Shown: positions 15,786 to 31,923, counted from the first letter of the stretch. The stretch is 64,000 nucleotides of DNA from Tagaea sp. (GCA_041917215.1 JAYRYC010000001.1:905605-969604), one strand, 5' to 3'. Translations and numbers: made by a program. The notes: a model not told the origin generated them from the sequence alone.

Positions 15786-16427
15786 TTACTGGCTCGCCCA
15801 AACGATGCGATGGATGAAGGCGACACCGCCGGCATCCATCGTTTCGATCGTGTTGTCGCCGACGAGCGGCAACACTTCCACATGGCGCGGCAAGCGGCGC
15901 ACGAATTCGCGCGCGACCAGGCGGCCGACGATGCTGCGCAGGATCACGCGGTCGCCACGCCGCGCGGGTGCGTGCGGGCTAACGATCAAAACATTGCCGT
16001 CGCGATAGAGGGGCTCCAGCGAATCCCCGTTGACGATCAGCGCGTAAGCGTCGTCGTCGAACAGATCGGGGAAGGCGAGTTCGTCCCACGCCGCCCCGGT
16101 GGGTTTACCGGCGTTATCGAACGCATCGCGCAACTGCGCGTCGGAAATCGACAGCGACGGCAGTTTTTTGCGCGCCCCGATTCCGCCCGCCGACGGCACG
16201 ACGCCCGCTTGCGCCAGAAAATCCAACGGGTTGGTCCCCGTGGTGTCGAAGATTCGCGCCAAGGATTCGAGCGAGGGGAAGCGCAAGCGCCCGTCCGGGC
16301 CGATGCGCTTGGAGCGATTGAACGCGCTGGGGTCGAGGCCCGCGCGCTTCGCGAGCCCCGACAACGTGAAGTTATGGTCGCGCGCGACCTTGTCGATCGC
16401 CGACCAGATATCCGCATGACGCAACAT
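15786..16427 (-). CDS. phage CI/LexA-like repressor (N-terminal DNA-binding domain plus C-terminal S24 peptidase domain)
   Basis: C-terminal S24 signature (LIVNGDSLEPLYRDGNVLIV...) with an N-terminal DNA-binding region. Transcribed divergently from the phage structural module. Confidence 0.7.
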   Translation of the reverse strand: MLRHADIWSAIDKVARDHNFTLSGLAKRAGLDPSAFNRSKRIGPDGRLRFPSLESLARIFDTTGTNPLDFLAQAGVVPSAGGIGARKKLPSLSISDAQLRDAFDNAGKPTGAAWDELAFPDLFDDDAYALIVNGDSLEPLYRDGNVLIVSPHAPARRGDRVILRSIVGRLVAREFVRRLPRHVEVLPLVGDNTIETMDAGGVAFIHRIVWASQ

Positions 16428-16489
16428 GACGGTGAAATCTTCGCACGCACCGCCGGATTTGGCGACCGGAATTTCAGCCTTAAAACATG

Positions 16490-16510
16490 AATATAGGAAA
16501 ATATTCCTAT
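16490..16510. promoter_or_regulatory. perfect palindrome ATAGGAA-AATA-TTCCTAT in the AT-rich repressor/structural-module divergent intergenic region; putative operator
   Basis: Seen directly in the sequence. It is the only AT-rich stretch in this intergenic region and lies next to TTTAAAAAT. Confidence 0.5.
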
Positions 16511-16592
16511 TTAAAAATCCATTGAGCGGGCTGCCCGCGAATCGTTATTCCTGGGGCGTCGAATTGATCCGCAACCCTCAGGAAACCGCGTC

Positions 16593-17066
16593 ATGGGCCT
16601 CGACTTCGCCGAACCGCAGACCGCCGAATTCGCGCTGATCCGCCCCGGATCGGAAGCGTTGGTCGTGTTCCGCGACCAGACCGAGATCGCGTGGTTGCGC
16701 TGGCTGAAACGCGGCTTCCGCCATTGCGCGGTGGTGGTGCGGATCGGCGGCGAGTGGGTGATGATCGATTCGCTGTCGCATTCGATTTGTGTCGGTAAAT
16801 TCAGCGCCGAACCGATGTCGCGTCTCGCCTGGCGCTATCGCAAGGCGGGTCACATCGTGATCGAAACGGCGGTCGGCGAAGGCAAGGCGCGCGTGGCGCC
16901 GCCGCTGCCCTTCACCTGCGTCGAGGCGGTCAAGCGCGTGCTGGGCATCCAAAGCTGGTTCGTGCTCACGCCCTATCAGCTCTATCGCCACCTGCGCGGC
17001 CGCGCGCGCGATCGCCGCCCCGAAATCGGCGGCGAAATCCGCCCCGTCGCCGCCGAAGCGGCGTGA
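16593..17066 (+). CDS. hypothetical protein, first gene of the phage-like module (possible His/Cys hydrolase)
   Basis: 157-aa intact ORF with no recognisable family. Contains a conserved-looking H..C pair (LSHSICVGKF). Confidence 0.35.
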   Translation: MGLDFAEPQTAEFALIRPGSEALVVFRDQTEIAWLRWLKRGFRHCAVVVRIGGEWVMIDSLSHSICVGKFSAEPMSRLAWRYRKAGHIVIETAVGEGKARVAPPLPFTCVEAVKRVLGIQSWFVLTPYQLYRHLRGRARDRRPEIGGEIRPVAAEAA

Positions 17067-17123
17067 GAACAAACATCGATCATATTTGTAACCGCCGAAC
17101 GAAAAGGAAATCAGGAGATCGCC

Positions 17124-17336
17124 ATGGGTTCCGTGTTTTCTTCCGCTCCGTCCGCACCGCCGCCGCCCCCGCCGCCGCCGCCTTTGCCCGACCCCGAAGT
17201 CGAACGCCGCGAAGCGCGCATCAAGGCGATGCTGCGCCGCCGGCGCGGGCGTCAGGGTCTGTTGTCGACGGGCGAGCGCGGCGTGCTGACCGCGTCGGTC
17301 CTGCCCGATCAGACCCAAACCAAGCTGGGGGCGTGA
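17124..17336 (+). CDS. small basic proline-rich protein (PPPPPPPPPLP run)
   Basis: 70-aa ORF with an AGGAG RBS. The coding region contains a (CCG)n tract. Confidence 0.35.
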   Translation: MGSVFSSAPSAPPPPPPPPPLPDPEVERREARIKAMLRRRRGRQGLLSTGERGVLTASVLPDQTQTKLGA

Positions 17337-17341
17337 CGATC

Positions 17342-18910
17342 ATGGACGCCGCACCCGACGCCGCGCCCGACCGGGCGCAGGAGATTCTGCGCCGCTATCG
17401 CCGCGCCAAACAGGCGCGGGGACCGTGGGAGTCGATCTGGCAGGATTGCTACGACTTCGCCTTGCCGCAGCGTTCGGCCCTGGCGCCGTCCGTCGCCCCC
17501 GATCGCCGTGCCGATCGTTTGTTCGATGGCACGGCGCCCGATGCGGCCGACCAGCTCGCCGCGTCGTTGATGTCGCAATTGGTGCCGCCCTGGACGCGCT
17601 GGTTCGGCTTGCAGCCGGGCAGCGACGTGCCCGAGGAGGTGCACGCCCAAGTCGGCGAGGTGCTGGAGAAGACCGCCGCGATTCTTCAGACGCATTTCGA
17701 TCGCTCGAATTTCGCGGTCGAGGCGCATCAATGCTTCCTCGATCTGATCGTCGCGGGCACCGCGGCGCTGCAGTTCGAGGAAGCCACGCCCGGCGCGGAC
17801 AGCGCCTTCCGTTTTACCGCCGTGCCCCTGGCACAGATCAGCGTGGAGGAGGGCGGCGATGGCTTGCCCGACACGGTGTTCCGCACCAGCGAGGTAACGG
17901 CCACACGTTTGCGCGCCCGCTTCCCGCGCGCCGAATTGCCCGAGGCGATCTTGCGCGAAGCCGAGGAGCGCACGAGCGAAGGTGTCGAAAAGCGCCACAC
18001 GCTGGTCGAAGCGGCGTTGCCCGAAGCGTCGGGCGTGCGATACGCGGCCGTGCTCGAAACCGGGGCGGGGGCGCAAACGCCCACGCTGCTCGCCGAAGGC
18101 CGCTTCGCGCAATCGCCGTTCCTCGTCTTCCGCTGGCTGAAGGCGCCGGGCGAATCCTATGGCCGTTCGCCGGTCATGAAGGCGCTGCCCGATATCAAGA
18201 CCGCGAACAAGGTCGTCGAACTCGTGCTCAAGAACGCGTCGATCGCGGTCACGGGCATTTGGCAGGCCGACGACGACGGGGTGCTCAACCCCGCCAATAT
18301 CAAGCTTCAGCCCGGCACGATCATCCCCAAGGCCGTGGGCTCGGCGGGACTGACACCGCTGGAAGCGCCGGGCCGTTTCGACGTGTCGAATCTCGTGCTC
18401 TCCGATCTGCGCGCGCGCATCCGCAACGCGCTGCTCGCCGACAAGCTCGGTGCCATCGAAGGGCCGAAGATGACGGCGACGGAAGTTCTCGAACGCTCGG
18501 CCGAAATGGCGCGCGTGCTCGGCGCCACCTATGGCCGCTTGCAGTCTGAACTGCTCACGCCGCTGGTCGCGCGCTCGATCGCCATCCTGCGCCGGCGCGG
18601 CGAGGTGCCGCCGATCGTGATCGACGGGCGCGTGGTGGAGCTTCGCTACAAATCGCCGCTTGCGCGCGTGCAGGCCGAAAGCGACGTGCGCAACGCGCTG
18701 CTGTGGATCCAGCAAACCGCGATGCTCGGCCCCGAAGGCCAAGCGACGGTCGATAGTGCCGCCGCCGCGCGCTGGATCGCGCGCGCGATGAACGTGCCCG
18801 CCGATCTGGTGAAGCCCGTTCAGGCCTTGCCCGACCCCGCGATGCTCGCCGCCGCATTGGGGCTTGGGCCCCAAGCAGCACCCGCCCCCGTTCCGCCACT
18901 CCCGAACTGA
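17342..18910 (+). CDS. phage portal (head-to-tail connector) protein, T7 gp8-like
   Basis: ~520 aa. Motif FRWLKAPGESYGRSPVMKALPDIKTANKVVELV matches the T7 connector R(M)VRLDGESYGRSYIEEYLGDL... Position is directly upstream of scaffold and capsid, as in T7. Confidence 0.8.
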   Translation: MDAAPDAAPDRAQEILRRYRRAKQARGPWESIWQDCYDFALPQRSALAPSVAPDRRADRLFDGTAPDAADQLAASLMSQLVPPWTRWFGLQPGSDVPEEVHAQVGEVLEKTAAILQTHFDRSNFAVEAHQCFLDLIVAGTAALQFEEATPGADSAFRFTAVPLAQISVEEGGDGLPDTVFRTSEVTATRLRARFPRAELPEAILREAEERTSEGVEKRHTLVEAALPEASGVRYAAVLETGAGAQTPTLLAEGRFAQSPFLVFRWLKAPGESYGRSPVMKALPDIKTANKVVELVLKNASIAVTGIWQADDDGVLNPANIKLQPGTIIPKAVGSAGLTPLEAPGRFDVSNLVLSDLRARIRNALLADKLGAIEGPKMTATEVLERSAEMARVLGATYGRLQSELLTPLVARSIAILRRRGEVPPIVIDGRVVELRYKSPLARVQAESDVRNALLWIQQTAMLGPEGQATVDSAAAARWIARAMNVPADLVKPVQALPDPAMLAAALGLGPQAAPAPVPPLPN

Positions 18911-18928
18911 TCCGCGAAAGGAAACGCT

Positions 18929-19690
18929 ATGACCACCGAAACCGCTGCGCCCGCCACGCCGATGCCCACGCCCGAGCCCGTCTCGCTGCTGCCGAATCCT
19001 GCACCCGCCGGCGGCCGTCCGGAATCGCTGCCCGAGAAATTCTGGGACAGCGAGAAGGGCGCCATCCGCACCGAAGATCTCGCCAAAGCCTATACCGAGC
19101 TCGAGCGGCGCATGTCGGGCTCCGTTCCCGGGCCCGGCAGTGCGGAGTGGGATTCCACGCTGCGTCGCGCGTTGGAAATTCCCGAAACGCCCGACGGCTA
19201 TCAGATCGCGATGAAAGACGATCTGCTGACGGTCGATCCCGCCGTGAACGCGCGCTTGCATCAGGCGGGTTTCTCGCCGCGCCAGGCGCAGCTCGTCTAC
19301 GACCTGGCGGTCGAGCGTATCGTTCCGCTGGCGGCACAGCTTGCCGCCGATGCGCGCCACGAGCAGACGATGGAACGCCTGACCGAGGAATTCGGCGGGA
19401 CCGAGAAATGGAACGCGCTGTCGGGCCAGATCGCCGCGTGGGGCCAGCGCAATCTCTCGCCGGTCGTGTACGCGGCACTCGCCGCGTCGCCCGACGGGAT
19501 CCGCGCGATGCGCCGCTTGATGGAATCGGGCGAGCCGCCCTTGGGCATGCCCGGCGGCGCGCCCATGCCCGCCAGCGAAGGCGATCTGCGCGAGATGATG
19601 AAGGACAAGCGCTATTGGCGCGATCGCGACCCCGCTTTCATCCGCGCGGTCACCGACGGCTATCGCCGCCTTTACGACGGCAAAGCCTGA
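18929..19690 (+). CDS. putative capsid scaffolding protein (T7 gp9 position)
   Basis: 253 aa, acidic and Pro/Ala-rich. Lies between the portal and capsid genes. Confidence 0.4.
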   Translation: MTTETAAPATPMPTPEPVSLLPNPAPAGGRPESLPEKFWDSEKGAIRTEDLAKAYTELERRMSGSVPGPGSAEWDSTLRRALEIPETPDGYQIAMKDDLLTVDPAVNARLHQAGFSPRQAQLVYDLAVERIVPLAAQLAADARHEQTMERLTEEFGGTEKWNALSGQIAAWGQRNLSPVVYAALAASPDGIRAMRRLMESGEPPLGMPGGAPMPASEGDLREMMKDKRYWRDRDPAFIRAVTDGYRRLYDGKA

Positions 19691-19791
19691 CGCCATTCGG
19701 CGGCGCCGCCCGCCCGTGATGTGCCGCTTGCGACGCGGCACCAACGGATAACGGAACGGCACCCGAAGAACGCGCCGGGATAACCGTCGCA

Positions 19792-19836: not shown

Positions 19837-19919
19837 ACGGACGGCCCCGGCGCCGAACCCACCCCGCCGGCCGCTTCTCGGACGTCCGGTCAACCTCTAC
19901 GCCAGGAGACAATCTAAAG

Positions 19920-20732
19920 ATGCCGAATATCGAAACGGCCTTCGTCAAAAACTACGAAGGCGAAGTCCACACCGCCTATCAGCGGCTGGGCTCCAAGCTG
20001 CGCAACACCGTGCGATCGAAGAAGCAGATCGAGGGTGCATCGACCGTGTTCCAGAAGATGGGCAAGGGGGCCGCGTCCACCAAGGCGCGTCACGCCCAGG
20101 TCCCGGTGATGAATGTCGACCATTCCACGGTCGAAGTGTTCCTCAAGGACTACTACGCCGGCGAATGGCTCGACGCGCTCGACGAGATCAAGGTCGGCAG
20201 CGACGAACGCCAAGCGGTGATCAATTCGGGCGCCTACGCGCTGGGCCGCAAGACCGACGAACTGATCATCGAAGCGCTGGGCGTGTCGAGCAACTACGCG
20301 GGCGACAACGTCTCGGGCCTCACCAAGGCCAAGGTGCTGACCGCCTTCGAGATGCTGGGTGCGGTCGACGTGCCCGACGACGGCGAGCGCTACGCCGTGG
20401 TCGGCTGGGGCCAGTGGAGCGATCTGCTCGACATCGAGGAGTTCGCCAACGCCGATTACGTCGGATCGGAAGATCTGCCGTGGAACGGCACGCAGGCCAA
20501 ACGCTGGCTCGGCACGCTGTGGATGCCGCATTCGGGCCTGACCAAAACGGCCGGCGTGCGCTTCTGCCACTGGTACCACAAATCGGCGATCGGCCACGCG
20601 TCCGGCAAGGACGTGACGACCGACATCACCTGGCACGGCGACCGCGCCAGCTTCTTCATCTCGAACATGATGAGCCAGGGTGCCGGCATCATCGACGCCG
20701 AAGGCGTCGTCACCCTGCGTTGCGCCGAGTAA
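19920..20732 (+). CDS. major capsid protein, T7 gp10-like
   Basis: FVKNYEGEVHTAYQRLGSKLRNTVRSK aligns with T7 gp10 FLKVFGGEVLTAFARTSVTTSRHMVRS. A strong SD precedes it, and it sits in the gp10 position. Confidence 0.7.
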   Translation: MPNIETAFVKNYEGEVHTAYQRLGSKLRNTVRSKKQIEGASTVFQKMGKGAASTKARHAQVPVMNVDHSTVEVFLKDYYAGEWLDALDEIKVGSDERQAVINSGAYALGRKTDELIIEALGVSSNYAGDNVSGLTKAKVLTAFEMLGAVDVPDDGERYAVVGWGQWSDLLDIEEFANADYVGSEDLPWNGTQAKRWLGTLWMPHSGLTKTAGVRFCHWYHKSAIGHASGKDVTTDITWHGDRASFFISNMMSQGAGIIDAEGVVTLRCAE

Positions 20733-20748: not shown

Positions 20749-21018
20749 ATGGCTTTCGTCCAGAAAAACCTCAGCGTGCTCGCCTACGCCAACGGCTTCA
20801 CGCTTTGGCACTACACCACGCCCGACACGGCCGCGACGGTCGACACGACGGGCTACTTCAACGCGGCCGCGGACATGCTGCGCCCCGGCGACATGCTGCT
20901 CGCCAACACCTCGACCGGGGGCACCACGGTCAACGGGATCTTCGCGGTCGCGTCGAACGCGAGCGGAATTGTCGATACCGCCGATATGACGCGGTTCGAT
21001 TCCGCCGACACCGACTGA
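20749..21018 (+). CDS. small phage structural protein (possible minor capsid or decoration protein)
   Basis: 89-aa ORF with a GGAAAGGAGA RBS, immediately after the capsid gene. Confidence 0.35.
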   Translation: MAFVQKNLSVLAYANGFTLWHYTTPDTAATVDTTGYFNAAADMLRPGDMLLANTSTGGTTVNGIFAVASNASGIVDTADMTRFDSADTD

Positions 21019-21101
21019 CGCTTGTAACCGCGAAGGGAAGGCGCGCCGGATCCAACCTCCCTGGAACCGGCGCGCCGGACCCGTCGACAGGAGATTCCAA
21101 A

Positions 21102-21671
21102 ATGGCCCTCACGCCCATTGCGCTTTGCTCGCGGGCACTCATCAAGCTCGGCGCCCGGCCGATCGCGTCCTTCGTCGAAGGCACGGTCGAAGCCCAGGTC
21201 GCCGCCGCGCTCTATCCTTCGGTGCGCGACGCGCTGATTTCGGCGCATCCGTGGAGCTTCGCGTCCGCGCAAGCAACGCTGCCGCGTTTGGCGGCCGCGC
21301 CCGTCGCGGATTTGCGCTACGCGCATCAATTGCCCGTCGATTTTCTGCGCGCACTCTCCGTCGGCTCGGGCGCGCGCGGGCGCGGGGCGGAATATCGCAT
21401 CGTCGAATCGACGCTGCAGAGCGATCTCGACGAGGTCGTGCTCTCCTACATCTTCCGGCCCGACGAAAGCGGCTTTCCGCCGTTCTTCGATTCCGCGTTG
21501 ATCGCGTCGCTGGCGGCGGAGTTCTGCCTGCCGATCACCGAAAGCACGTCGCGCTCGGAGCTTCTCTACAAGCTCGCCGACGGCGAGTTCCGCCGCGCGC
21601 GGCTGATCGACGCGCAACAGGACACGCCCGGCCGCGTCGAGGACTTCACGCTGGTGGAGGCGCGCCGATGA
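21102..21671 (+). CDS. putative tail tubular protein A (T7 gp11 position and size)
   Basis: 190 aa (T7 gp11 is 196 aa). Sits between capsid and tubular B. Its stop overlaps the next start (ATGA). Confidence 0.45.
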   Translation: MALTPIALCSRALIKLGARPIASFVEGTVEAQVAAALYPSVRDALISAHPWSFASAQATLPRLAAAPVADLRYAHQLPVDFLRALSVGSGARGRGAEYRIVESTLQSDLDEVVLSYIFRPDESGFPPFFDSALIASLAAEFCLPITESTSRSELLYKLADGEFRRARLIDAQQDTPGRVEDFTLVEARR

Positions 21672-23569
21672 GCCTCGCCCGCACGGTCAAAACCTCCTTC
21701 GCGTCGGGGGAGATCGGCGACGCGATGCTGGGGCGCGTGGACTTACGCGCCTACGAGAACGGGGCGCGCGCCTTGCGCAACGTGTTCGTGCAGCCCACAG
21801 GCGGGGTGCGCCGCCGGCCGGGCCTTGCCTATGTCGGTCCGTTGCCGGGCGAGACGCGCCTCGTGCCGTTCGAGTTCAATACCGAACAAGCCTATCTGCT
21901 CGCCTTCGGCGACCTGACGATGCGCGTCTACAAGGACGGCGTGCTGCAAGCGACGATCGCCACGCCGTGGAATGCGGCGCAACTCGCCCAGCTCGCCTGG
22001 ACGCAGAGTGCCGATACGCTGCTGGTCGTCCATCCCGACGTGGCCCCACGCAAGATCACGCGCCAGTCGCATGCGAGCTGGACGGTCGAGGCGTGGAGCT
22101 ACTTCGAGGACAAGGGCGCCATCCACCAGCCCTTCCATAAATTCGCCGGCGATGCGGTGACGCTGCAACCGAGTGCCACGAGCGGTACGGTCACGCTGAC
22201 CGCGTCGGCGGCGGTTTTCGACGCCGCGCATGTGGGGACACGCATCCGCATCGCGCAGAAGCAAGCGATCGTGACGGCCGTCGCGTCCGCCACATCGGCG
22301 ACCGCGACGGTGCCCGCGGGACAAGGTTTTGCGGACACGGCCGCGAACAAGGATTGGGAGGAGCAGGCCTTCTCCGCCCGTCGCGGCTGGCCGACCAGTG
22401 TCACCTTCCATCAGGACCGCTTGGTGATCGGCGGCTCGCGCGATTTGCCCAATCGCCTGTGGTTGTCGAAATCGGGCGATCTGTTCAATTTCGATCTCGG
22501 CTCGGCGCTCGACGACGAGGCGATCGAATTCGCGCTGCTGTCCGACCAGGTCAACGCGATCCGCGCCGTGTTCTCCGGCCGGCATTTGCAGGTGCTGACC
22601 TCCGGCGCGGAATGGATGGTCACCGGCGATCCGCTCACACCCGAGAACGTCCAGCTCAACCGCCAGACGCGCATCGGCGCGCCGATCGATCGCTATATAA
22701 GGCCGCGCGACGTGGATGGCGCCACGCTGTTCGTCGGGCGCGGCGGCAAGGATCTGCGCGAGTTTTTATTCGCGGAGGCCGAGCAGGCCTACCAATCGAC
22801 GGATCTCGCCTTGCTCGCATCGCATTTGGTGCGCGCACCCGTCGATCTCGATTACGACCCGGACGATCGCCTCGTCCATCTCGTCAACGCCGACGGCACG
22901 CTGGCGACCGTCACCGTCTATCGCGCCGAGCAGGTCACCGCTTGGTCGCTGCAAACGACCGATGGCGCGTTCCGCTCGATCGCGGTCGTGACGGGCGAAT
23001 GCTATTTCGCGATCGAGCGTGGCGGCGTGTGGAGCGTCGAGCGCTTCGACAAGGCGAGTGCGACCGATGCGTGCGTGCGTGGCGTTTCGGTCGCGGGCGA
23101 TCCGCCGCGACTGGAAGGGCTCGGCCATTTGAACGGCCGGACCGTCGACGTGGTGATCGACGGCTTGCCGCTGGGCCAACGCATCGTCGCTTCGGGCGGC
23201 GTCGATCTGCCCGACGAAGCCGATCTCGCCGAAGCTGGCTTGCCGTTCGTGGCGACGATCGAGCCTTTGCCGCCGGGCGGACCCGCCGGCACGCCGCGCT
23301 CCGTGCGTTTGATCGAAGCGTCCTTCCGCTTGCTCGACACCGCGCAGATGCGCGTCGACACGGGCTCGGGCTTCGTCGATGTGCCGTTCCGCGGTTTCGG
23401 CGGGGCGAATGCGTTCGACTCGGCGCCGCGACTTTTCACCGGCGAAAAACGTTTCCGGGCACTCGGCTGGAAACGCGCGGGCGTCGAGCCGCTATGGCGG
23501 GTCGAACTGCCGGCCCCGCTGCCCTTCCAACTTCTTTCCGTAACCCAAGAGATGAAGGTGAACGACTGA
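21668..23569 (+). CDS. putative tail tubular protein B (T7 gp12-like)
   Basis: 633-aa beta-rich protein in the gp12 position. TGATG overlap with the downstream gene. Confidence 0.55.
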   Translation: MSLARTVKTSFASGEIGDAMLGRVDLRAYENGARALRNVFVQPTGGVRRRPGLAYVGPLPGETRLVPFEFNTEQAYLLAFGDLTMRVYKDGVLQATIATPWNAAQLAQLAWTQSADTLLVVHPDVAPRKITRQSHASWTVEAWSYFEDKGAIHQPFHKFAGDAVTLQPSATSGTVTLTASAAVFDAAHVGTRIRIAQKQAIVTAVASATSATATVPAGQGFADTAANKDWEEQAFSARRGWPTSVTFHQDRLVIGGSRDLPNRLWLSKSGDLFNFDLGSALDDEAIEFALLSDQVNAIRAVFSGRHLQVLTSGAEWMVTGDPLTPENVQLNRQTRIGAPIDRYIRPRDVDGATLFVGRGGKDLREFLFAEAEQAYQSTDLALLASHLVRAPVDLDYDPDDRLVHLVNADGTLATVTVYRAEQVTAWSLQTTDGAFRSIAVVTGECYFAIERGGVWSVERFDKASATDACVRGVSVAGDPPRLEGLGHLNGRTVDVVIDGLPLGQRIVASGGVDLPDEADLAEAGLPFVATIEPLPPGGPAGTPRSVRLIEASFRLLDTAQMRVDTGSGFVDVPFRGFGGANAFDSAPRLFTGEKRFRALGWKRAGVEPLWRVELPAPLPFQLLSVTQEMKVND

Positions 23570-24054
23570 TGGGTGCCGCAACCGCCGTAACGCCGTGGCT
23601 CACGGGCGCATCGCTGGGCCTCGGGGCCGTCCAAACCGTCGCCGGTATGGCGCAGGCGAATTCCGCCGCGAAAGCGCAAGCCGACGCGACGCGCGCGCAG
23701 GCCGAACAGCAGCGTCAATTGCTGGAGCGCCAATACGAAACCGAATCGCGCCGGCGCAACGACATCCTGGAACGCGCCCAGGCGCGCGCGCGGGCGTCGT
23801 TCGGATCGCGCGGCCTGTCGCCGACCGATGGCTCGGCGGGCGCCTTGCTCGATTCGATCGAGACGCAAGCCGGGACCGAAGCCGCCGATGCGCGCTCGCT
23901 GTTCGATTGGCGCATGTCCGGCCTCGACGCCGGGCTCGCCGCGTCGTTGCAGCGGATCGATTCGCGCCAGCCCGACCTTCTGTCCGGCGCGCATCGCACG
24001 CTTGGGCAAGTCAACCAGCTTCTGCGCTGGGGCAAGGAAATGAGCCTCTCCTGA
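23569..24054 (+). CDS. phage internal virion or tail-associated protein (gp13/gp14 position)
   Basis: 161 aa, Ala/Gln-rich and helical. Confidence 0.35.
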   Translation: MGAATAVTPWLTGASLGLGAVQTVAGMAQANSAAKAQADATRAQAEQQRQLLERQYETESRRRNDILERAQARARASFGSRGLSPTDGSAGALLDSIETQAGTEAADARSLFDWRMSGLDAGLAASLQRIDSRQPDLLSGAHRTLGQVNQLLRWGKEMSLS

Positions 24055-24990: not shown

Positions 24991-27390
24991 ATGCTCCCGA
25001 TCCTCCCATCCGGCACGGGCGGCGACTTCGCGATCGCGCGATCCTTGCGCATTCGCGGCACGGCGAATGCCGGTCTCTACCGCGCCGTCGCGACGACGAC
25101 CAACCGGCGGACCTACACCCTGTCGCGCTGGTTCAAGCTCGGCGCGCAAGATCAGGGCTTCGCGCTCTGGCAGGGTTATATCAACGCGTCGAACTGGACG
25201 AGTTTCATCATCCATACGTCCAGCCGCCAATTCTCCTTCGCGCAAGCGGATGGCGGCGTGGGCAACTGGTCGGTGATCTCCACCGCGGCCTTCCGCGACC
25301 CCGGCGCCTGGTATCACCTCGTCATCCAGGTCGATACGACCGACGCGACCGCGGCCAATCGCGTGCGCGCCTGGGTGAACGGCGTCGCGGTCCCGCTATC
25401 GGTGTCGGGCGCGGGATTCCCGTCCTTGAACAAGGACACGCATATCAATGTCGGCGGCGCGCAGCAGGGCTTCGGGTATGAGCCGACGAACTATCTGCTG
25501 CCGAGCGACGGGCATCATGCCGAGATCCACTTCGTCGATGGACAGCTTGCGGCGCCGTCGGCGTTCGGGCGTATCGATCCGGCGACCGGGGTCTGGGTGC
25601 CGATCGCTTACGCGGGCGCGCATGGCGGGGCCAACGGCGCTTTTCACGATTTCCGCGACGCGACCAGCGCGGCGACGCTCGGGCTCGACTATTCGGGCAA
25701 CGGCGCGCATCTGACCGTCGGCGGAGTCGGTGTCGCCGCCGGCGTCGCGTTCGACCAATCGAACGACACCCCGACGAACAACCACGCGACGATCAATCCG
25801 TTGCGTCGGATGCAAGCGACCGGACCCGTGGCGAGCTGGGGCAACGCCCGGTATCGATCCGGCAATGGCAGCTATTATCCGCGCGGTGTCGCCACGCAGC
25901 CCTTCGAGGATGACGCGACCGGCTGGTATTGCGAATTCACTTTGACGACCGCGCATCTCGGCGTCGAAGGTTTCGGCGTCGTCACGGGCGGCGCATATCT
26001 AAACGACGCGAACGCCATTGGCTTTGAGGCGGCCGAGTGGGGCTACCAGGGCAACGGCGCCGCCGGCCGGATCGCCAACAACGGCGTCAACGCTTTCACC
26101 GGTCTCCCGCTTTGGAGTGCCGGCCAAGTCGGGAAAATCGCCTATCGCAACGGCAGCCTTTGGCTTGGCATCGACAATACGTGGTTCAACGCCGGCAATC
26201 CGGGGGCGGGCACCGGCGCCGTCTATACCGGCTTGGCCGGACCGCTGTTCCCGTTGTGCCTGGCCGGATCCACGACGCCCGTCATCGACGCCAATTTCGG
26301 CCAGCGCCCCTTCGCGTACACGCCGCCCGCCGGGTTCAAGGCGCTTAACGCGCGCAACATGTCGGCGCCGCCTATCAAGAACCCGGCGGACTATGTCGAT
26401 GTCGTCAACTACGATGGCAATGGCGGGACGCAAGCGATTTCGTCGCTCCGCTTCCAGCCGGATTTCGTGCGGATCAAGTGCCGGTCGAAGTCGTCGACGT
26501 CGCACGCGATGTTCGACGCCCTTCGCGGCGTTCGTAAGTTTCTTTACGCCGAGACGGGCGGCGTCGAACAAAACTTCACGGCGCCGAATTACGGCGTCGA
26601 TTCCTTCGACGCGAACGGCTTCACCGTCGTCGACGACGCGAACGGATCGAAGAACGTCAACGGCGTCCCGGCGGGAACCTGGGGCGGCAACTACAACGCT
26701 TGGGCCATGAAGCGGGGTGTCGCGCCCGGCTTCGATATCGTGACCTACGCGGGCAACGCGACGGCCGGGCGCGCGGTCGGTCATGCCCTGGGTGCCGTGC
26801 CGCATCTGATGATCGTGAAGGCCCGAAGCGCGGGAACCGATTGGGCGGTCTATCATCGCAACGCGGCGGCGAATGCCCATAACGGCGTGCTGTATCTCAA
26901 CTACACGAACGCTTATCTCGCCTCCGGCGCGACGCTGCAATGGAATCAAACGGCCCCGACCAGCGGCGTCTTCTTCCTCGGCGGCAGCGGGTACAGCGTC
27001 AACAACAGCGGCGAAACCTATGTCGCCTATTTGTGGACCGAGATCCCCGGTTTCAGTCGCATCGGTGCCTATACCGGCAATGGCGGCGCCGACGGGCCGT
27101 TCGTTTGGTGCGGCTTCCGGCCGCGCTTCGTGCTGATCAAGCGCACCGACGGCGCCAACACATGGTGGCTGTACGACACGGCACGCAATCCGTTCAACGT
27201 CGCGAACGCGGTGCTCGGCGCGAATGACGGATCGGCCGAAAGCACCGCCTTCGGCGGCGCGAGCCGCGACATCGACATCCTGTCGAACGGCTTCAAGCTT
27301 CGCACGTCGAACGATCCGAACGGCGGCGGCGGAAACTTCGTCTTCGCCGCCTTCGCCGAGACGCCCTTCAAACACGCCAACGCCCGATAA
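24991..27390 (+). CDS. large glycine-rich tail fiber / receptor-binding-like protein
   Basis: 799 aa with repeated NG/GNG/GxG motifs and a predicted beta-rich fold. Not similar to T7 gp15/gp16. Confidence 0.45.
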   Translation: MLPILPSGTGGDFAIARSLRIRGTANAGLYRAVATTTNRRTYTLSRWFKLGAQDQGFALWQGYINASNWTSFIIHTSSRQFSFAQADGGVGNWSVISTAAFRDPGAWYHLVIQVDTTDATAANRVRAWVNGVAVPLSVSGAGFPSLNKDTHINVGGAQQGFGYEPTNYLLPSDGHHAEIHFVDGQLAAPSAFGRIDPATGVWVPIAYAGAHGGANGAFHDFRDATSAATLGLDYSGNGAHLTVGGVGVAAGVAFDQSNDTPTNNHATINPLRRMQATGPVASWGNARYRSGNGSYYPRGVATQPFEDDATGWYCEFTLTTAHLGVEGFGVVTGGAYLNDANAIGFEAAEWGYQGNGAAGRIANNGVNAFTGLPLWSAGQVGKIAYRNGSLWLGIDNTWFNAGNPGAGTGAVYTGLAGPLFPLCLAGSTTPVIDANFGQRPFAYTPPAGFKALNARNMSAPPIKNPADYVDVVNYDGNGGTQAISSLRFQPDFVRIKCRSKSSTSHAMFDALRGVRKFLYAETGGVEQNFTAPNYGVDSFDANGFTVVDDANGSKNVNGVPAGTWGGNYNAWAMKRGVAPGFDIVTYAGNATAGRAVGHALGAVPHLMIVKARSAGTDWAVYHRNAAANAHNGVLYLNYTNAYLASGATLQWNQTAPTSGVFFLGGSGYSVNNSGETYVAYLWTEIPGFSRIGAYTGNGGADGPFVWCGFRPRFVLIKRTDGANTWWLYDTARNPFNVANAVLGANDGSAESTAFGGASRDIDILSNGFKLRTSNDPNGGGGNFVFAAFAETPFKHANAR

Positions 27391-27401
27391 GGAGAACCGA
27401 C

Positions 27402-27941
27402 ATGCGTTTCCAACTTCCCGATGGCCGGATCGTCGCCCTCGATCAGGCATTCGCCCATGACGGCGTCAACTATCCGGCCGATTGGCTGCGCCGCGCATCG
27501 TCCGCGGATCGCGCCGCGTTGGGCGCGATCGAGCTGGCGCCGCCGCCCGCATTCGACGAACGCTGGTACTTCGCGCCCGGCGAAGCACGGCCGCTCGACG
27601 CGATCAAAGCGACGCGCCTGGCCGAACTCGCGGCGATCCGGTTCGGACACGAAACGGCGGGCGTCTCGGGTTTGCGCAGCGATCGCGAAAGCCAGGCGCT
27701 GCTGACCGGGGCGGCGCTGGCCGCCACGCTCGATCCCGAATACACGGTCGACTGGAAAGGCGAGGGCGGCTGGACGCCCCTCGACGCCGTGCAATTACTG
27801 GCGGCGGCGCAATCCGTGCGCGGCCATGTGCAGGCGTGTTTCTCCAACGAACGCGTTCTCGCCGCCGCGATCGATGCGGCGGCCGATATGGACGCGGTTC
27901 TCGCCGTCGATCTGGGCCAAGGCTGGCCTTCGTCGAACTGA
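27402..27941 (+). CDS. hypothetical phage protein (possible fiber assembly or chaperone)
   Basis: 179-aa ORF directly downstream of the fiber-like gene. Confidence 0.3.
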   Translation: MRFQLPDGRIVALDQAFAHDGVNYPADWLRRASSADRAALGAIELAPPPAFDERWYFAPGEARPLDAIKATRLAELAAIRFGHETAGVSGLRSDRESQALLTGAALAATLDPEYTVDWKGEGGWTPLDAVQLLAAAQSVRGHVQACFSNERVLAAAIDAAADMDAVLAVDLGQGWPSSN

Positions 27942-27951
27942 CGCCACGCCG

Positions 27952-29520
27952 ATGCCCGAACCCAAAACGCGGCGCCGCGCGCCCGCGAAGGCGAAGCCGC
28001 GCCCGCGCGCCAAGAAGCCGGTGGCGGAGATCGTCGTACGGCCCGCGGCCCCCGGCTTCGTCGCCTTCGTCGATGCGTGGAATGCACTCCAGAACCAGAC
28101 GACGCCGTCGCTCCATACCCGCATCGCCGCGTGGCTCGAAGGCAGCCGCGTGGAAAAGCGCGACCGGTTGGTGCTGCTCGCCTTCCGCTCCAGCGGCAAA
28201 TCGACCTTGGTCGGCTTGTTCTGCGCCTGGCTGTTCGCCTGCGATCCCGATCTGCGCGTGCTCGTGCTCGCGGCGACGCATGCGCTCGCCCGCAAGATGG
28301 TGCGCAACGTCAAACGCATCGTCGAGCGGCACCCGGCTTGCGCGGGCCTCAAGCCCGTGAAGACCGAGCAATGGGCGGCCGATCAATTCATCGTCGCGCG
28401 CCAGGCGGAATTGCGCGACCCGTCGATGGTCGCCAAAGGGATGCTCGGCAACGTCACCGGCAGCCGCGCCGATATCGTCATCTGCGACGACGTCGAGGTG
28501 CCCAACAATTGCGACACGGCGGCCAAACGCGAGGATTTGCGCGAACGCTTGCACGAGATCGAATACGTGATCGTGCCCGGCGGCTTGCAGCTTTATATCG
28601 GCACGCCGCACGCGCATGAATCGATCTATGCCGAGGAAACGGGCGACGAAGACGAAGCGCCCGTCTTCCTCGAAGGCTTCGCGCGATTGCGCATTCCTTT
28701 GCTGGACGCCGAAGGCCGCAGCGCCTGGCCCGAACGATTCGACGAAGCCAAAATCTCGGCGATCCGCAAACGGACGGGCCCGCGCAAATTCCAAGCGCAG
28801 ATGATGCTGGAGCCGCTGCCCGAAAACGGCGGGCGGCTCGATCTCGACCGCATGGTCCCGTATGAGGCTTCGCTGGTTTATTCGGAAGCGAACCGCATCC
28901 CGACGCTGACGCTCGACGGCAAGCGCCTGGTCTCGGCGAGCTGCTGGTGGGATCCGTCTTTCGGGAAACCCACGGGCGATCGGTCGGTCGTCGCGGTCGT
29001 GTTCGTCGATGAGACCGGCGGCTATTGGCTGCACGAGATCGCCTATTTGGCCGCGCCCAAGGCGGGGGCGAAGGACACGGACGAAGCCGCGCATTATTGC
29101 CGCCAGGTCGCGGAATTCGCGCGGCGCAATCACGTGCAGCGTTTGCATGTCGAGCAGAACGGGATCGGCGCGTTCCTGCCGGGTTTGCTGCGCAAGGCGA
29201 TGGCGGAAGCGGAAGTGGCGTGCGCCGTCACACCCGTGCATACGCGCCGCTCCAAAGACGCGCGCATTCTCGATGCGTTCGACGCGCGCCTCGCCGCGCG
29301 CGCGTTGCGCGCCCATCGCTCGGTCTGGGCGTCGCCCTTCGCGGTCGAGATGCGCGAATGGCGGCCGGGCGGGGGCGGGCGCGACGACGGGCTCGATGCG
29401 GTCGCGGGTTGTTTGCTGTCCGAGCCCGTTCGCTTCGGTCCGCCGGAAAGCACCGCCAAACGCAAGGATTGGCGCCCGGGCACGGCCGGCCATGCGGCCA
29501 AAACCGAATTCGAACCATAG
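27952..29520 (+). CDS. phage terminase large subunit (T7 gp19-like DNA maturase B)
   Basis: Walker A (AFRSSGKSTLVG), an ATPase plus RNaseH-like nuclease arrangement, ~520 aa. Located after the fiber genes, as in T7. Confidence 0.75.
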   Translation: MPEPKTRRRAPAKAKPRPRAKKPVAEIVVRPAAPGFVAFVDAWNALQNQTTPSLHTRIAAWLEGSRVEKRDRLVLLAFRSSGKSTLVGLFCAWLFACDPDLRVLVLAATHALARKMVRNVKRIVERHPACAGLKPVKTEQWAADQFIVARQAELRDPSMVAKGMLGNVTGSRADIVICDDVEVPNNCDTAAKREDLRERLHEIEYVIVPGGLQLYIGTPHAHESIYAEETGDEDEAPVFLEGFARLRIPLLDAEGRSAWPERFDEAKISAIRKRTGPRKFQAQMMLEPLPENGGRLDLDRMVPYEASLVYSEANRIPTLTLDGKRLVSASCWWDPSFGKPTGDRSVVAVVFVDETGGYWLHEIAYLAAPKAGAKDTDEAAHYCRQVAEFARRNHVQRLHVEQNGIGAFLPGLLRKAMAEAEVACAVTPVHTRRSKDARILDAFDARLAARALRAHRSVWASPFAVEMREWRPGGGGRDDGLDAVAGCLLSEPVRFGPPESTAKRKDWRPGTAGHAAKTEFEP

Positions 29521-29536
29521 AGAAGGAGTGCGCGCG

Positions 29537-29830
29537 ATGCCGGCGATGGAATTCCCGCCCGACATGTTGTTGGGCGCCGCGACCAACACTTCGGCGCTCG
29601 GCGCCATGGTGTGGCTCGTCTGGCGCCATCGGCGCGACGCCGAACAGGCGATCGACGCCGCGCGCCGCGTCGCGTCGGAAGAAGCGCGCGAACTGCGCGA
29701 AGCGCTCGCCGATTTCAAATTGCAGGTCGCGCGCGGCTACGCGTCGATTGGCTATCTGAAGGACGTCGAGAACCGGCTCACGCGCCATTTGCTGCGCATC
29801 GAGGCGAAGCTCGACGGAGCCCAACCATGA
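29537..29830 (+). CDS. small single-TM protein (holin or i-spanin candidate)
   Basis: 97 aa with an N-terminal TM helix (LLGAATNTSALGAMVWLVW) followed by a coiled coil. Confidence 0.4.
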   Translation: MPAMEFPPDMLLGAATNTSALGAMVWLVWRHRRDAEQAIDAARRVASEEARELREALADFKLQVARGYASIGYLKDVENRLTRHLLRIEAKLDGAQP

Positions 29831-30381
29831 TCCCCGCCTTGTTGCTGCAAGCGGGCGTACCGTTGCTGGCGCGCTGGCTCGGCCAAGCCTTGGGCGGGAT
29901 CGAGCATCCGGCCGCGAAGGCGGCGTCCAAAGCCTTGGGCGAGGTCGGCGAGGCGATCGCGGCCGAGCGTATCGATCCCGAACAGCTGGCGGCAGCACAG
30001 CGCCATCTCGAGGAAATGGCGAAGATCGACGGCGAGAATTATCGCGCGACCTTGGCCGAGGTGAACGCGACCGCGCGCGTCGAAGCGCAAAGCGACGATC
30101 CCTATGTGCGCCGCATGCGCCCGACCTTTGGCTACGTCATGGCGATTACGTGGGCCGCACAGATGATCGCCGTCGCCTGGTCGATCGTGACCGCGCCGAA
30201 GGACGCGGCGCAGGTGGTCGAAGCGTTGGGCGCCTTGTCGCTGATTTGGTCGGTCGGGCTCTCGGTGCTCGGCGTCTATGTCTACAAGCGCTCGGCCGAC
30301 AAAGCCGTATCTGCAGGTCTGCCGCCGCCGGCCGCCGCGATCGCGACGATCGCCAAAATTCTCAAACCCCGGAAAGGATAG
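29827..30381 (+). CDS. putative 3-TM holin (gene-transfer-release type holin family)
   Basis: 184 aa. Soluble helical middle region, C-terminal TM helices, and a terminal basic tail (YVYKRSADK..KPRKG). Architecture resembles PF11351-type holins. ATGA overlap with the upstream gene. Confidence 0.4.
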   Translation: MIPALLLQAGVPLLARWLGQALGGIEHPAAKAASKALGEVGEAIAAERIDPEQLAAAQRHLEEMAKIDGENYRATLAEVNATARVEAQSDDPYVRRMRPTFGYVMAITWAAQMIAVAWSIVTAPKDAAQVVEALGALSLIWSVGLSVLGVYVYKRSADKAVSAGLPPPAAAIATIAKILKPRKG

Positions 30382-30384
30382 ACC

Positions 30385-31320
30385 ATGCCGAGCTACACGC
30401 TGGCGCAACTGCGCGCGATGCAGGCCGATCGCCGCTATTGGGACAAGCGCGACCCGGCGAACGCCGATTTCGTCGCGCAAGTCTATCAGGGCTATCGCGA
30501 TCTTTTCGACGAACCGGCCGGGCTCGTTGCCACGCCCGAGCAGGAGGAACAGTCGCGCCGTCTCGAAGAAGATCTGCGCCGCCGCATGGCGCGATCCGAG
30601 TATTGGAATCCGCGCCATGCGGATTACGAGCGCCTGCACGACGATGTCGCGCAAGGTTACGCGAAGCTCTATCCGGCGGCGGCACCGGCCTCACCGATGG
30701 CCGAGCCCGAGCAGACACCGCCGCCCGAACCGGTGAACCTGTTGGAACTGACGCGACGGATGTTGCCCGTAGGTTCAAGCTCTAGAATGAATCTGCAAGA
30801 AGTGAAGCCAAGTTCGGAAAGCAATCTGGTCCTCTCAACAAGTGGATCCCAAATTGCTCTATCGCCATATTGGCAGAAACCTCCAGCACCTGAACCAACG
30901 GTTCCGGAGCGTAGCCCTGTTCCCATGCCGCCAAAGATAATTCACCCCGACATTTCGGCGCCGCCCAATAGCGATCCGAATTTGATCTATTCACCGCTCC
31001 AAGTCGATCCTTCTCAAATTGAGAAACTGTGGAAATTTTTGGATGATCCGGAGTGGGGATATCAGAAGTTCCTCGAAGAGTGGGGCAACAAGAAATGGAA
31101 GGATCCTGTCACCGGGGAGGAGCGCCCATTCACCGAGAAAGAGCTTAGGGACAGTTTCGAGCGGGATCAGGACAAAACAAAAGAGTTTCTTTGGGACTAC
31201 TATCACCGACGAGATTCTGTTTTTCCTGAGGACAAGGAACGCGCATTTCCGCCTGGTGTCGAGGAGCCCAACGAATGGTTCGAACGGGAAGATAAAGAGT
31301 TTGAAGGGCGCTTTGGTTGA
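30385..31320 (+). CDS. hypothetical charged protein with chimeric composition (GC-rich 5' half, ~50% GC 3' half)
   Basis: 311-aa ORF. GC drops sharply from ~nt 30760 onward. The C-terminus is a W/E/K/D-rich low-complexity region. Confidence 0.4.
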   Translation: MPSYTLAQLRAMQADRRYWDKRDPANADFVAQVYQGYRDLFDEPAGLVATPEQEEQSRRLEEDLRRRMARSEYWNPRHADYERLHDDVAQGYAKLYPAAAPASPMAEPEQTPPPEPVNLLELTRRMLPVGSSSRMNLQEVKPSSESNLVLSTSGSQIALSPYWQKPPAPEPTVPERSPVPMPPKIIHPDISAPPNSDPNLIYSPLQVDPSQIEKLWKFLDDPEWGYQKFLEEWGNKKWKDPVTGEERPFTEKELRDSFERDQDKTKEFLWDYYHRRDSVFPEDKERAFPPGVEEPNEWFEREDKEFEGRFG

Positions 31321-31425
31321 ACCGGCTAGATAAATTCATTGCAGTCCTGCGGTTGAGTTCATGACGCAATCGCAGGATATTTTTCTAATATGACTTTGTT
31401 GATATTCGTTGATATTCTTTTTTAC

Positions 31426-31923
31426 ATGAAGAATTGGCAATCTATCTTTAGAAAGCATAGTTGCGCTGGGTACAGAAGATTCGCCGCATATCGGGTTGCA
31501 TGTCGAATCGTGTTGCCTATTTTTTTCGCGCCTTTAGTGGCGTGCGCGCCGTCGGGTATCTATGGGCCCTATGGCTTACCGGTTGAAGTGTATTCGCAGT
31601 GCAATGAGGCCCCGCATCCCGGACCATCCGCCTGTACGCGCGGACCTTTATCGCTCGTTCCGCTCGCCGATCCGCGCGGCTGCGTTCCTTACGCCGCATC
31701 GCGCGAAACGACGCTCGCACGCCGTGCTTCGGTCGAAACGCTCTGCCGCGACAACGTGCTCGATACCGAGGGCCGCGTGTTGGTTTCCAAAGCGCGGCTC
31801 GCCGATCGGATCGAGGCGGCGGAAAGCGCGCGCCGGCTGTCGGGAGATCCGGCGCGCCAGGCGCAGGCCGCAGCCGATCTCGCGGTCTTGCGCGAATTGA
31901 TACCCCAAGCGCCAGCCGAATAG
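31426..31923 (+). CDS. putative Cys-rich lipoprotein (moron or o-spanin candidate)
   Basis: Signal peptide with lipobox-like PLVAC. Start lies in an AT-rich region, and an alternative ATG is present at 31390. Confidence 0.35.
   Translation: MKNWQSIFRKHSCAGYRRFAAYRVACRIVLPIFFAPLVACAPSGIYGPYGLPVEVYSQCNEAPHPGPSACTRGPLSLVPLADPRGCVPYAASRETTLARRASVETLCRDNVLDTEGRVLVSKARLADRIEAAESARRLSGDPARQAQAAADLAVLRELIPQAPAE

Follow-up and report, generated by a model that had tools for sequence, protein, structure and literature searches.

To our knowledge, genetically defined gene transfer agents (GTAs) are few, and all of them come from long-tailed phages. The GTA of Rhodobacter capsulatus (RcGTA; Rhodogtaviriformidae) is under the control of CtrA and GafA. 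Particles of Desulfovibrio Dd1 have a very short tail and poorly defined genetics. PBSX-type defective prophages of Bacillus are phage-like bacteriocins of the Firmicutes with a contractile tail and a narrow taxonomic spread, and satellites such as capsid-forming phage-inducible chromosomal islands (cf-PICIs) are tailless, move horizontally, and have their own genes for integrase, replication, and helper interference. Here, we analyze a cluster of phage-type genes at positions 15786-31923 (the island) of a 64,000-nt stretch of DNA from Tagaea sp. (GCA_041917215.1 JAYRYC010000001.1:905605-969604), called the window below. The element is probably previously undescribed and falls outside the RcGTA family, T7-like prophages, tailocins, and satellites; no account of an element of this type was found in the full-text literature, subscription-only papers being outside the scope of that search. 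We regard it as reasonably probable that the island is an anciently domesticated late module of a T7-supergroup podovirus, vertically inherited and still making DNA-filled, short-tailed particles with a GTA-like role.

A T7-type late module at a host locus

Searches of all island open reading frames (ORFs) against Pfam, PHROG, and NCBIfam, with hidden Markov models (HMMs), identified a T7-type late module on the plus strand, with all of the genes and the gene order that a reading of this DNA from sequence alone (the sequence-only reading) had claimed. The T7 late order 8-9-10-11-12-14-17-19 is kept, gp15, gp16, and gp18 are absent, and the fiber gene comes directly after the gp14-like gene. 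The gene model was built from codon-position GC, the family searches, and gene calls on identical metagenome contigs (L001); the high GC of the window (about 0.65) makes raw ORF lists noisy. Some starts of the sequence-only reading were corrected (portal, 17342; LamG/DUF7483 protein, 24991; large terminase TerL, 27952), with tubular B at 21668-23569, the fiber at 24066-24989, and the holin at 29827-30381, and two genes were added to its list; a 97-aa gene at 29537-29830 lies between terL and the holin gene. The features are as follows.

15786..16427, minus strand: repressor, 213 aa, with Cro/C1-type helix-turn-helix (HTH) and S24 (LexA/CI-like) domains (PF00717, PF13443, phrog_4)
16493..16510, no strand: operator candidate ATAGGAA-AATA-TTCCTAT, a perfect 7-N4-7 palindrome (sequence and palindrome search)
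16593..17066, plus strand: o157, 157-aa product of the first gene of the operon, probably a cysteine hydrolase of the permuted NlpC/P60 (papain-like) type
17124..17336, plus strand: 70-aa Pro-rich basic protein (called in L001; phrog_831, E 9e-5)
17342..18910, plus strand: portal (T7 gp8-type head-tail connector), 522 aa (PF12236, E 2e-141; phrog_332)
18929..19690, plus strand: scaffolding protein, T7 gp9-type (PF05396, E 8e-12; phrog_1018, phrog_3742)
19920..20732, plus strand: major capsid protein (MCP), 270 aa (PF19821, E 2e-80; phrog_3437)
20749..21018, plus strand: o89, conserved 89-aa protein (phrog_18004, E 7e-22)
21040..21076, plus strand: stable GC hairpin with no U-tract, at the boundary of the capsid and tail blocks (minimum free energy -40.9 kcal/mol)
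21102..21671, plus strand: tail tubular protein A, gp11-type (phrog_394, E 2e-42)
21668..23569, plus strand: tail tubular protein B, gp12-type nozzle, 633 aa (phrog_376, E 3e-143)
23569..24054, plus strand: gp14-like internal virion (ejection) protein, 161 aa (phrog_418/15746/805; weak PF24072 T7_gp14)
24066..24989, plus strand: tail fiber with T7 gp17-type N-terminal tail-attachment domain (phrog_1640, E 3e-21; PF03906 weak)
24991..27390, plus strand: LamG and DUF7483 fiber or receptor-binding protein (PF13385, PF24299, phrog_19943, phrog_24898)
27402..27941, plus strand: DUF4376 fiber-associated protein, lineage-specific (PF14301, E 4e-21; phrog_10508)
27952..29520, plus strand: TerL (T7 gp19-type) with a Lys/Arg-rich N-terminal tail (phrog_38, E 4e-87)
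29537..29830, plus strand: o98, 97-aa protein with an N-terminal transmembrane (TM) segment and a coiled coil (phrog_29007, E 1e-26)
29827..30381, plus strand: holin, 3-TM 'GTA holin' family (PF11351, E 4e-11; phrog_3427)
30385..31320, plus strand: o311, 311-aa low-complexity protein (no family match; full-length homologue only in L005 among 80 loci)
31390..31923, plus strand: o177, lineage-specific ORF with a lipobox-like LVAC motif (homologue only in L005)

By these assignments, the island is predicted to encode all parts of a DNA-filled, short-tailed particle (portal, scaffold, capsid, nozzle, gp14-like protein, fibers, and terminase), together with a putative lysis set made up of the TM/coiled-coil protein, the holin, and the probable permuted NlpC/P60-type hydrolase. 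The GESYGRS motif of the portal is at residue 270, and coupled junctions are present, as proposed earlier, with ATGA at tubA/tubB and at o98/holin and TGATG at tubB/gp14. Also as proposed, the Pfam, PHROG, and NCBIfam scans of the island detected no family for an integrase, polymerase, primase, RNA polymerase, small terminase (TerS), or gp15/gp16. The hallmarks of a T7-like (Autographiviridae-type) prophage (single-subunit RNA polymerase, DNA polymerase, and primase-helicase) were found neither in the island nor in the window families listed, and the island does not show the features of an ordinary temperate prophage (integrase, att repeats, and variable presence); no att-like direct repeats flank it beyond chance GC-rich matches.

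Conserved host genes make up the flanks: those for a DinG-type helicase and LysK lie on the upstream side, and those for DUF952, PyrD, and an EAL protein on the downstream side. The flanks contain no early or replication half of a T7-like prophage. Housekeeping functions (SecA, GroES/EL, ArgJ, methylmalonyl-CoA mutase, and ABC transporters) make up the remaining window among the 25 of 33 Pfam families listed outside the island. Both GC content and GC at third codon positions (GC3) in the island equal the level of host genes.

The sequence-only reading had found a tailocin-like particle and a GTA both conceivable. We reject the tailocin, as capsid, scaffold, portal, and terminase genes, the last with its ATPase and nuclease motifs intact, are present, conserved, and under purifying selection. 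The GTA part of that proposal stands, as the best-supported function that we infer.

Distribution and conserved gene order

Relatives of tubular B are encoded in at least 504 species genomes, a lower bound obtained by scanning GTDB with each species represented by a single genome. The protein has thousands of close homologues of near-constant length, many of them on megabase-scale chromosomal contigs of Rhodospirillales. The comparative set used below is the best 80 of these genome loci (tubular B identity 53-97%). It includes Tagaea (97%; Rhodospirillaceae), Magnetospirillum, Phaeospirillum, Paramagnetospirillum, Terasakiella, Caenispirillum, Pacificispira, Hwanghaeella, Magnetovibrio, Elioraea/Acetobacteraceae, and Micavibrio, and tubular B is 626-643 aa long in 80/80 loci.

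Gene order in these loci was determined by tblastn with all window proteins and by family clustering of ORFs, which picked up gp14-like and post-terminase genes that tblastn had missed. The order of repressor (minus strand), o157, portal, scaffold, MCP, o89, tubular A, tubular B, gp14, fiber, terL, and holin is the same in nearly all of them. A comparison of the lysK-pyrD interval, suggested by the sequence-only reading, revealed the same island in related and in distant genomes. Among the 80 loci, lysK is directly upstream in 16 and DUF952 and/or pyrD downstream in 15; the six Tagaea-labelled loci of the set have the island at this same place, as do distant genera, and the loci flanked by lysK/DUF952/pyrD include Elioraea and an Acetobacteraceae metagenome-assembled genome (MAG) at about 57% tubular B identity.

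In other lineages, insertions of 1-3.5 kb occur at the scaffold/MCP and o89/tubA junctions, and what they bring in are ORFs of host type (ODP/metallo-beta-lactamase, chemoreceptor, PilZ, DUF2927, Rce1-like, and GST) or genes for cell-wall hydrolases. The cluster is inverted or split in, for example, L035/L041/L061, L051/L071/L074, and the isolate Thalassospiraceae LMO-JJ14. These inserted host genes and rearrangements are signs of long residence. Compact versions of the island measure only ~12.8 kb. The top Pfam families of the 240 extra ORFs in the 80 loci include no integrase, polymerase, or primase, and no Autographiviridae-type early or middle genes are among the top families of the related loci. 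As a separate observation, the scaffold/MCP and o89/tubA intervals are the two longest gaps of the cluster and recurrent sites of host-gene insertion (L016, L025, L066, L067, and many more).

Purifying selection and co-divergence with host genes

The island evolves at host-gene rates and under purifying selection, the latter proposed by the sequence-only reading in place of decay. First, we made Nei-Gojobori estimates of nonsynonymous (dN) and synonymous (dS) divergence for ten pairs of loci, the closest pair being the window and the Tagaea MAG locus L005. For this pair, dN/dS was 0.00-0.29 for conserved core genes (0.036 for MCP, 0.061 for portal, 0.088 for terL, and within 0.036-0.088 for tubular B), with the fiber cassette (0.54) as the exception. 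Values reached 0.58 in the more diverged pair of the window and L006. Second, dS between the window and L005 was 0.12-0.49 for island genes and 0.22-0.34 for the flanking helicase, lysK, DUF952, pyrD, and EAL genes. Third, protein distances for tubular B, capsid, terminase, and tubular A were strongly correlated with those for lysK (Mantel r 0.92-0.98) and pyrD (r 0.89-0.94; p<=0.0005 throughout), with slopes of 0.7-0.9 and intercepts near zero. Fourth, the tubular B tree places the five Terasakiella loci together, the Tagaea loci together, and the Elioraea/Acetobacteraceae pair together; all 12 loci labelled Magnetospirillum, Phaeospirillum, or Paramagnetospirillum form one clade with five MAGs that have higher-rank labels only, and the two Micavibrio-labelled loci fall inside one larger clade with unnamed Alphaproteobacteria MAGs. 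Finally, orthologous islands are overwhelmingly intact, with few disruptions in portal and tubular A genes; truncated genes numbered 0/67 for capsid, 0/78 for tubular B, and 0/60 for terminase. We are highly confident that the island has been domesticated and is inherited vertically. All of the computational checks that the sequence-only reading had suggested favored domestication, and none of the refuting conditions it had set was encountered. Because every head, tail, and packaging gene is under selection, production of DNA-filled, short-tailed particles is the outcome to be expected of it.

These results bear directly on the idea that the island is an inert, decaying prophage remnant, kept by chance or for the sake of one useful gene, which we consider extremely unlikely. 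A few truncated or split portals, one frameshifted tubular A, the lack in the window of several genes of its relatives, and the loss of catalytic residues from its repressor would all suit a remnant, but 12 or more genes have stayed whole and in the same order over divergence at the level of families or orders, dN/dS in the closest pair is mostly 0.03-0.2 with dS at the housekeeping level, and neutral decay would erase ORFs at dS above 0.3-0.8.

Relation to phages

The deposited phages closest to the island are 31-44 kb podophages, namely pelagiphage Hodr, other pelagiphages, Methylophilales phage MEP301, Yersinia YeP4-6, and Vibrio phages. The best phage identities are 48% for MCP (Pelagibacter phage Hodr), 34% for tubular B (MEP301 and YeP4-6), and about 28-32% for TerL. 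Hodr is collinear with the island from portal to fiber at 24-48% identity and has ORFs of 783 and 1247 aa after a gp14-sized ORF, in the gp15/gp16 position, where the island has neither. More generally, portal, scaffold, MCP, the 89-aa protein, tubular A and B, and the N-terminal fiber domain are homologous and collinear between the island and T7-supergroup podophages (Pelagibacter phage EXVC031P Hodr, HTVC203P/HTVC024P, MEP301, and YeP4), which also share the gp19-type terminase. These phages differ in having early/replication genes and large internal core proteins, whereas the island, which has none of these, keeps to one place in the host chromosome and diverges at the pace of host genes.

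A search of IMG/VR and of 50,697 phage records found no full-length phage genome with close late genes. The best 80 of 302 relatives in IMG/VR are provirus calls and short contigs, the longest of ~44 kb, and none of these 80 has a replication module; their island portions extend over 12-19 kb, from the repressor through terL or the holin gene.

A still-mobile phage could in principle leave such traces, if the island were the late part of a split or satellite-like temperate phage whose replication, integration, gp15/gp16, and TerS functions were encoded elsewhere or supplied by a helper phage. RcGTA is itself encoded at several loci, which makes unlinked components plausible, the cluster is split or rearranged in some genomes, and inspection covered 64 kb of this genome. 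We nevertheless rate this explanation as very unlikely, given the fixed chromosomal position across families, divergence that tracks the flanking genes, the lack of att repeats, GC3 ameliorated to the host level, and the lack of any full-length phage genome with close late genes in IMG/VR or the phage records.

Terminase, packaging, and delivery

Walker A (AFRSSGKST), Walker B (VICDDVE), and the acidic nuclease motifs of TerL are kept in at least 90% of 59 sequences. In 32 loci, a conserved gene of ~120 aa immediately precedes terL; the Tagaea lineages, the window among them, do not have it, and no relatives of it were detected. Because of this position, the gene product is suggested to be a small terminase. 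Most Tagaea-clade terminases have a Lys/Arg-rich N-terminal tail of 20-40 residues (27952-28056 in the window; also L005, L007, L009-L011, and L015), whereas terminases of loci with the ~120-aa gene have no basic tail and begin about 8 residues before the first conserved motif. Possibly, the basic tail is a non-specific DNA-binding substitute for a small terminase.

The gp14-like family has 25 members, located between tubular B and the fiber gene. Retention of gp14 with loss of gp15/gp16 suggests, by analogy with the T7 ejection proteins and with the dependence of RcGTA on competence genes of the recipient, that DNA would be delivered to the periplasm only.

The o89 protein, with homologues in 71 loci and at the same position in phage Hodr, is probably a minor head or decoration protein. 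ARAGORN called a tRNA-Asp (20934-21015; 82 nt) inside the o89 gene, which we reject as a false positive, as Rfam finds no tRNA there and the surrounding gene is kept in these 71 loci. The hairpin at 21040-21076 has a z score of -3.7, 0/200 shuffled sequences fold equally well, and its position is analogous to that of T7 T-phi after gene 10.

Receptor-binding cassette

Only the N-terminal half of the fiber gene (24066-24989) is conserved across loci, and the fiber region of other loci encodes varied fiber domains. The LamG/DUF7483 protein is ~45% identical to its L005 counterpart, and its neighbors are 88-99% identical. At the DNA level, positions 24994-27000 gave no blastn match to L005, and the surrounding DNA is 89-92% identical. 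This segment, which covers the N-terminal two-thirds of the protein, looks like a receptor-binding cassette swapped by recombination or else diverged beyond detection by blastn.

Swapped or hypervariable receptor-binding cassettes in otherwise near-identical islands are what strain-level targeting predicts, and they fit a PBSX-like killer particle that is released by lysis, kills competitors upon adsorption, and packages DNA only incidentally. The complete set of head, tail, and lysis genes, the phage-type repressor, the fixed locus, and the lack of replication genes match the PBSX arrangement, and a pore-forming gp14-like protein is kept with gp15/gp16 lost. Such a particle would have a short, non-contractile tail with no obvious killing mechanism, however, and we know of no podovirus-type killing particle. 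No immunity gene was identified, and the importance of filled heads is implied by the strong purifying selection that acts on the terminase, portal, and scaffold genes. On balance, we think a killer particle unlikely and favor DNA-filled particles with a GTA-like role.

Repressor, operator, and first operon gene

The divergent CI/LexA-type repressor and the palindromic operator described in the sequence-only reading are both present (15786-16427 and 16493-16510). A full-length or near-full-length repressor lies beside the cluster in 35/80 genome loci. About 30 homologues keep AQAG (Ala-Gly), GDSMEP, and a Lys that aligns with the catalytic Lys of LexA. The family has the features of self-cleaving S24 proteins (a Ser-Lys dyad and an Ala-Gly site), and the lineage of the window, L005, and L006 does not: AQAG is lost and Arg or Cys stands at the Lys position in all three repressors, with GDSLEP (Ser present) and Arg in the window protein. 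Despite the lost AQAG and Lys, the repressor is under strong purifying selection (dN/dS 0.053 against L005). SOS induction is a reasonable supposition for the family and is doubtful for the window lineage because the window repressor has neither the Ala-Gly site nor the catalytic Lys.

The region between the repressor gene and the operon (16428-16592; 165 bp) is AT-rich and holds the palindrome at 16493-16510. Palindromes of the TAGGA/TCCTA type are found at the same place in the distant loci L023, L054, L058, and L082, and the operator differs by lineage, with TAGGAA/TTCCTA palindromes in the window clade. In the sister Tagaea clade (L007-L015), a conserved GTTT-N7-GTTC sequence, not found in the window, lies upstream of the o157 homologue; it resembles the alphaproteobacterial LexA box, GTTC-N7-GTTC. 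Another observation is that 21 loci (for example, L076 1995-2357), none of them in the Tagaea lineages, encode a conserved protein of ~120-140 aa (EEAWFWF...RPCDPxD...KGIV) between the repressor and the o157 homologue. No relatives of this protein were detected, and it is a possible further regulator of the cluster. Profiles of this protein and of the ~120-aa protein encoded upstream of terL found nothing in the PDB.

The first operon gene, o157 (16593-17066), is conserved in 41 related loci and had no sequence match in Pfam, PHROG, NCBIfam, or the PDB. Forty homologues share an invariant GFRHC (41-45) and C109, V110, E111, K114, and R115 of a CVExxKR motif. The product is probably a permuted NlpC/P60-type (papain-like; YiiX/TseH-like) cysteine hydrolase and a candidate peptidoglycan hydrolase, a lead that came from fold comparison and not from the sequence searches.

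At the other end of the module, the o98 family occurs in 21 loci immediately 3' of terL; in the window, the gene is preceded by a ribosome-binding site, and its predicted product is a candidate spanin- or antiholin-like lysis accessory.

Lysis and repressor genes also invite a reading in which lysis and capsids serve some other exapted role without DNA delivery, such as supplying biofilms with DNA or public goods by programmed release or defending against phages in an abortive, decoy-type manner. The holin and lysis genes and, in most members, a damage-type repressor fit programmed altruistic lysis. Selection on the tail nozzle and fibers and diversification of receptor binding would go unexplained, and we find a role of this kind quite unlikely.

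Edges of the island and neighboring sequence

Homologues of the 70-aa protein are found in the o157-portal interval of other loci too. At the distal end, o311 and o177 had no family match in Pfam, PHROGs, or NCBIfam. The o311 gene is a lineage-specific add-on and not part of the core, because L005 was the one locus of the set of 80 with a full-length homologue; its dN/dS against L005 is 0.20. The o177 product is possibly an outer-membrane lipoprotein or o-spanin, as its LVAC motif would allow. GC content falls to 0.55 (vs about 0.66) in 31000-32000, around this ORF (31390-31923), which is probably a recent acquisition at the distal edge of the island. Scans for sigma-70 promoters and terminators gave no more than shuffled sequence would and were uninformative.

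At the proximal edge, a 269-bp insert resembling a miniature inverted-repeat transposable element (15517-15785) fills precisely the gap between the stop codons of lysK and the repressor gene, which are convergent. It has perfect 22-nt terminal inverted repeats (GAGTCTGATCCAGGGGAATTGG), extendable to about 27 nt, is missing from the 92%-identical Tagaea MAG locus L005, and has no second copy within the window. Elsewhere in the window, a very large ORF of 1779 aa (37742-43081) lies in a stretch with a GC content of 0.70-0.71, against a window mean of about 0.65.

A model for particle production and its difficulties

If the island functions as we propose, loss of repression in a subpopulation of cells would turn on the operon. 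Induction in most family members would occur by RecA-stimulated self-cleavage of the repressor; the window lineage, whose repressor has neither the site nor the Lys, may respond to another trigger. Terminase would then fill proheads from chromosomal DNA without a recognizable sequence-specific small terminase, and cell lysis would free particles unable to propagate themselves. Fibers would bind a related cell, and the gp14-like protein would open its outer membrane. Without gp15/gp16, the DNA would reach the periplasm only, and its further uptake would, as with RcGTA, be a matter for the recipient cell. Overall, the system would serve DNA repair or an exchange of genes like that by GTAs.

Several observations weigh against this model. 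First, integrity is not perfect: portal is disrupted in 3/46 loci and tubular A is frameshifted in 1/78, although some of these disruptions may be MAG assembly errors. Second, regulation fits poorly. The window repressor may be non-cleavable, judging from its sequence, and its specificity region diverges fast (52% identity between the window and L006, compared with 89% for lysK); a phage-type repressor with fast-diverging specificity is more phage-like than host-integrated regulation. Third, the window does not have the endolysin types, TerS candidate, regulator, and Bbp19-like genes found in many relatives. HMMs for five families from other loci (the ~120-aa gene upstream of terL, the EEAWFWF protein, a Bbp19-like protein, a SleB-type hydrolase, and a PG-binding protein) matched none of the six-frame ORFs of the window, even at E<=10. 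Further components could be encoded elsewhere in the genome, the 64 kb of the window having been inspected. Fourth, packaging of chromosomal DNA is not straightforward. A T7-type terminase normally requires gp18 and concatemer junctions, and phages with the related capsid family have 31-39 kb genomes. A capsid of ancestral size could hold the whole island, unlike that of RcGTA, and self-packaging is possible.

Finally, the tubular B family is a continuum of thousands of uncharacterized proteins at 35-50% identity that grades down to ~30% in an exhaustive search, and the limits of the domesticated clade are not defined because of this continuum. The clade is probably wider than the 53-97% set. 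The 38%-identical locus L167 (IMGVR_UViG_3300028422_001972), from a low-GC organism (0.38), keeps the compact layout, with the fiber gene followed directly by terL; a second query yielded no locus. In L167, the terminase (8179-9925) is in two ORFs about 200 nt apart, which could reflect an intervening element or a pseudogene.

If the proposal is right, a podovirus-type particle system exists in at least 500 species belonging to branches without RcGTA, and domestication is recurrent and independent of morphotype. The system would be a candidate to account for gene exchange among Rhodospirillales that are magnetotactic or that live in the sea or in soil, and it would offer a natural experiment on minimal podovirus DNA delivery, with gp14 kept and gp15/gp16 lost. 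Virome and prophage surveys are affected as well, as IMG/VR already lists such islands as viral genomes. The proposal is directly testable because there are culturable carriers, including Magnetospirillum fulvum, M. molischianum, Terasakiella pusilla, Elioraea thermophila, Caenispirillum bisanense, Paramagnetospirillum caucaseum, and Pacificispira spongiicola.

Comparison with known systems

Tailocins (R-/F-type pyocins) share with the island a domesticated phage structural module, release by lysis, and diversification of receptor-binding proteins. They derive from long-tailed phages and have no capsid, portal, scaffold, or terminase, whereas the island keeps its head and packaging genes under selection. 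Satellites, cf-PICIs among them, are likewise small chromosomal elements with capsid, portal, and terminase genes, but integrase, replication, and helper-interference functions, tail loss, and horizontal movement are not seen in the island. PBSX resembles it in having a complete particle/lysis module at a fixed site, a phage-type repressor, no propagation, and conservation in a host group; PBSX is contractile and of narrow spread, and the island is podovirus-type and found in several families.

The statement of the sequence-only reading that known GTAs are siphovirus-like is correct for genetically defined ones and does not extend to Desulfovibrio Dd1. A claim to the 'first podovirus-type GTA' should be made with care because of the short tail of Dd1. 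As in the definition of a GTA or viriform, the island is a chromosomal structural cluster without replication, integration, or excision genes of its own, and it is inherited vertically and co-evolves with the host under purifying selection. TerS proteins of known GTAs are without a DNA-binding domain (PMC11841831); in the window, no DNA-binding small terminase is recognizable.

Both RcGTA and the island are 13-16 kb chromosomal head-tail-terminase clusters without replication or integration genes, and both are vertically inherited across a large alphaproteobacterial clade under purifying selection. RcGTA-type families (HK97-type capsid with prohead protease, SPP1-type portal, tail tube, and tape measure) were not detected in the island, and the PF11351 holin family is the only one shared. 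RcGTA has been described as siphovirus-like and HK97-type, whereas the island has a T7-type podovirus architecture. An HTH-S24 repressor of its own is encoded by the island, and RcGTA is controlled by CtrA and GafA. Their host ranges are complementary, because large clusters of the RcGTA type are reported to be absent from Rhodospirillales, Micavibrio, and deep branches of the Alphaproteobacteria related to them (Shakya et al., 2017; PMC5721377). It is conceivable, although we lean slightly against it, that the island represents a second, independently domesticated GTA lineage of the Alphaproteobacteria, T7-like, as old as Rhodospirillales-type orders, resident in clades without RcGTA, delivering DNA to the periplasm, and convergent with the siphovirus-derived RcGTA.

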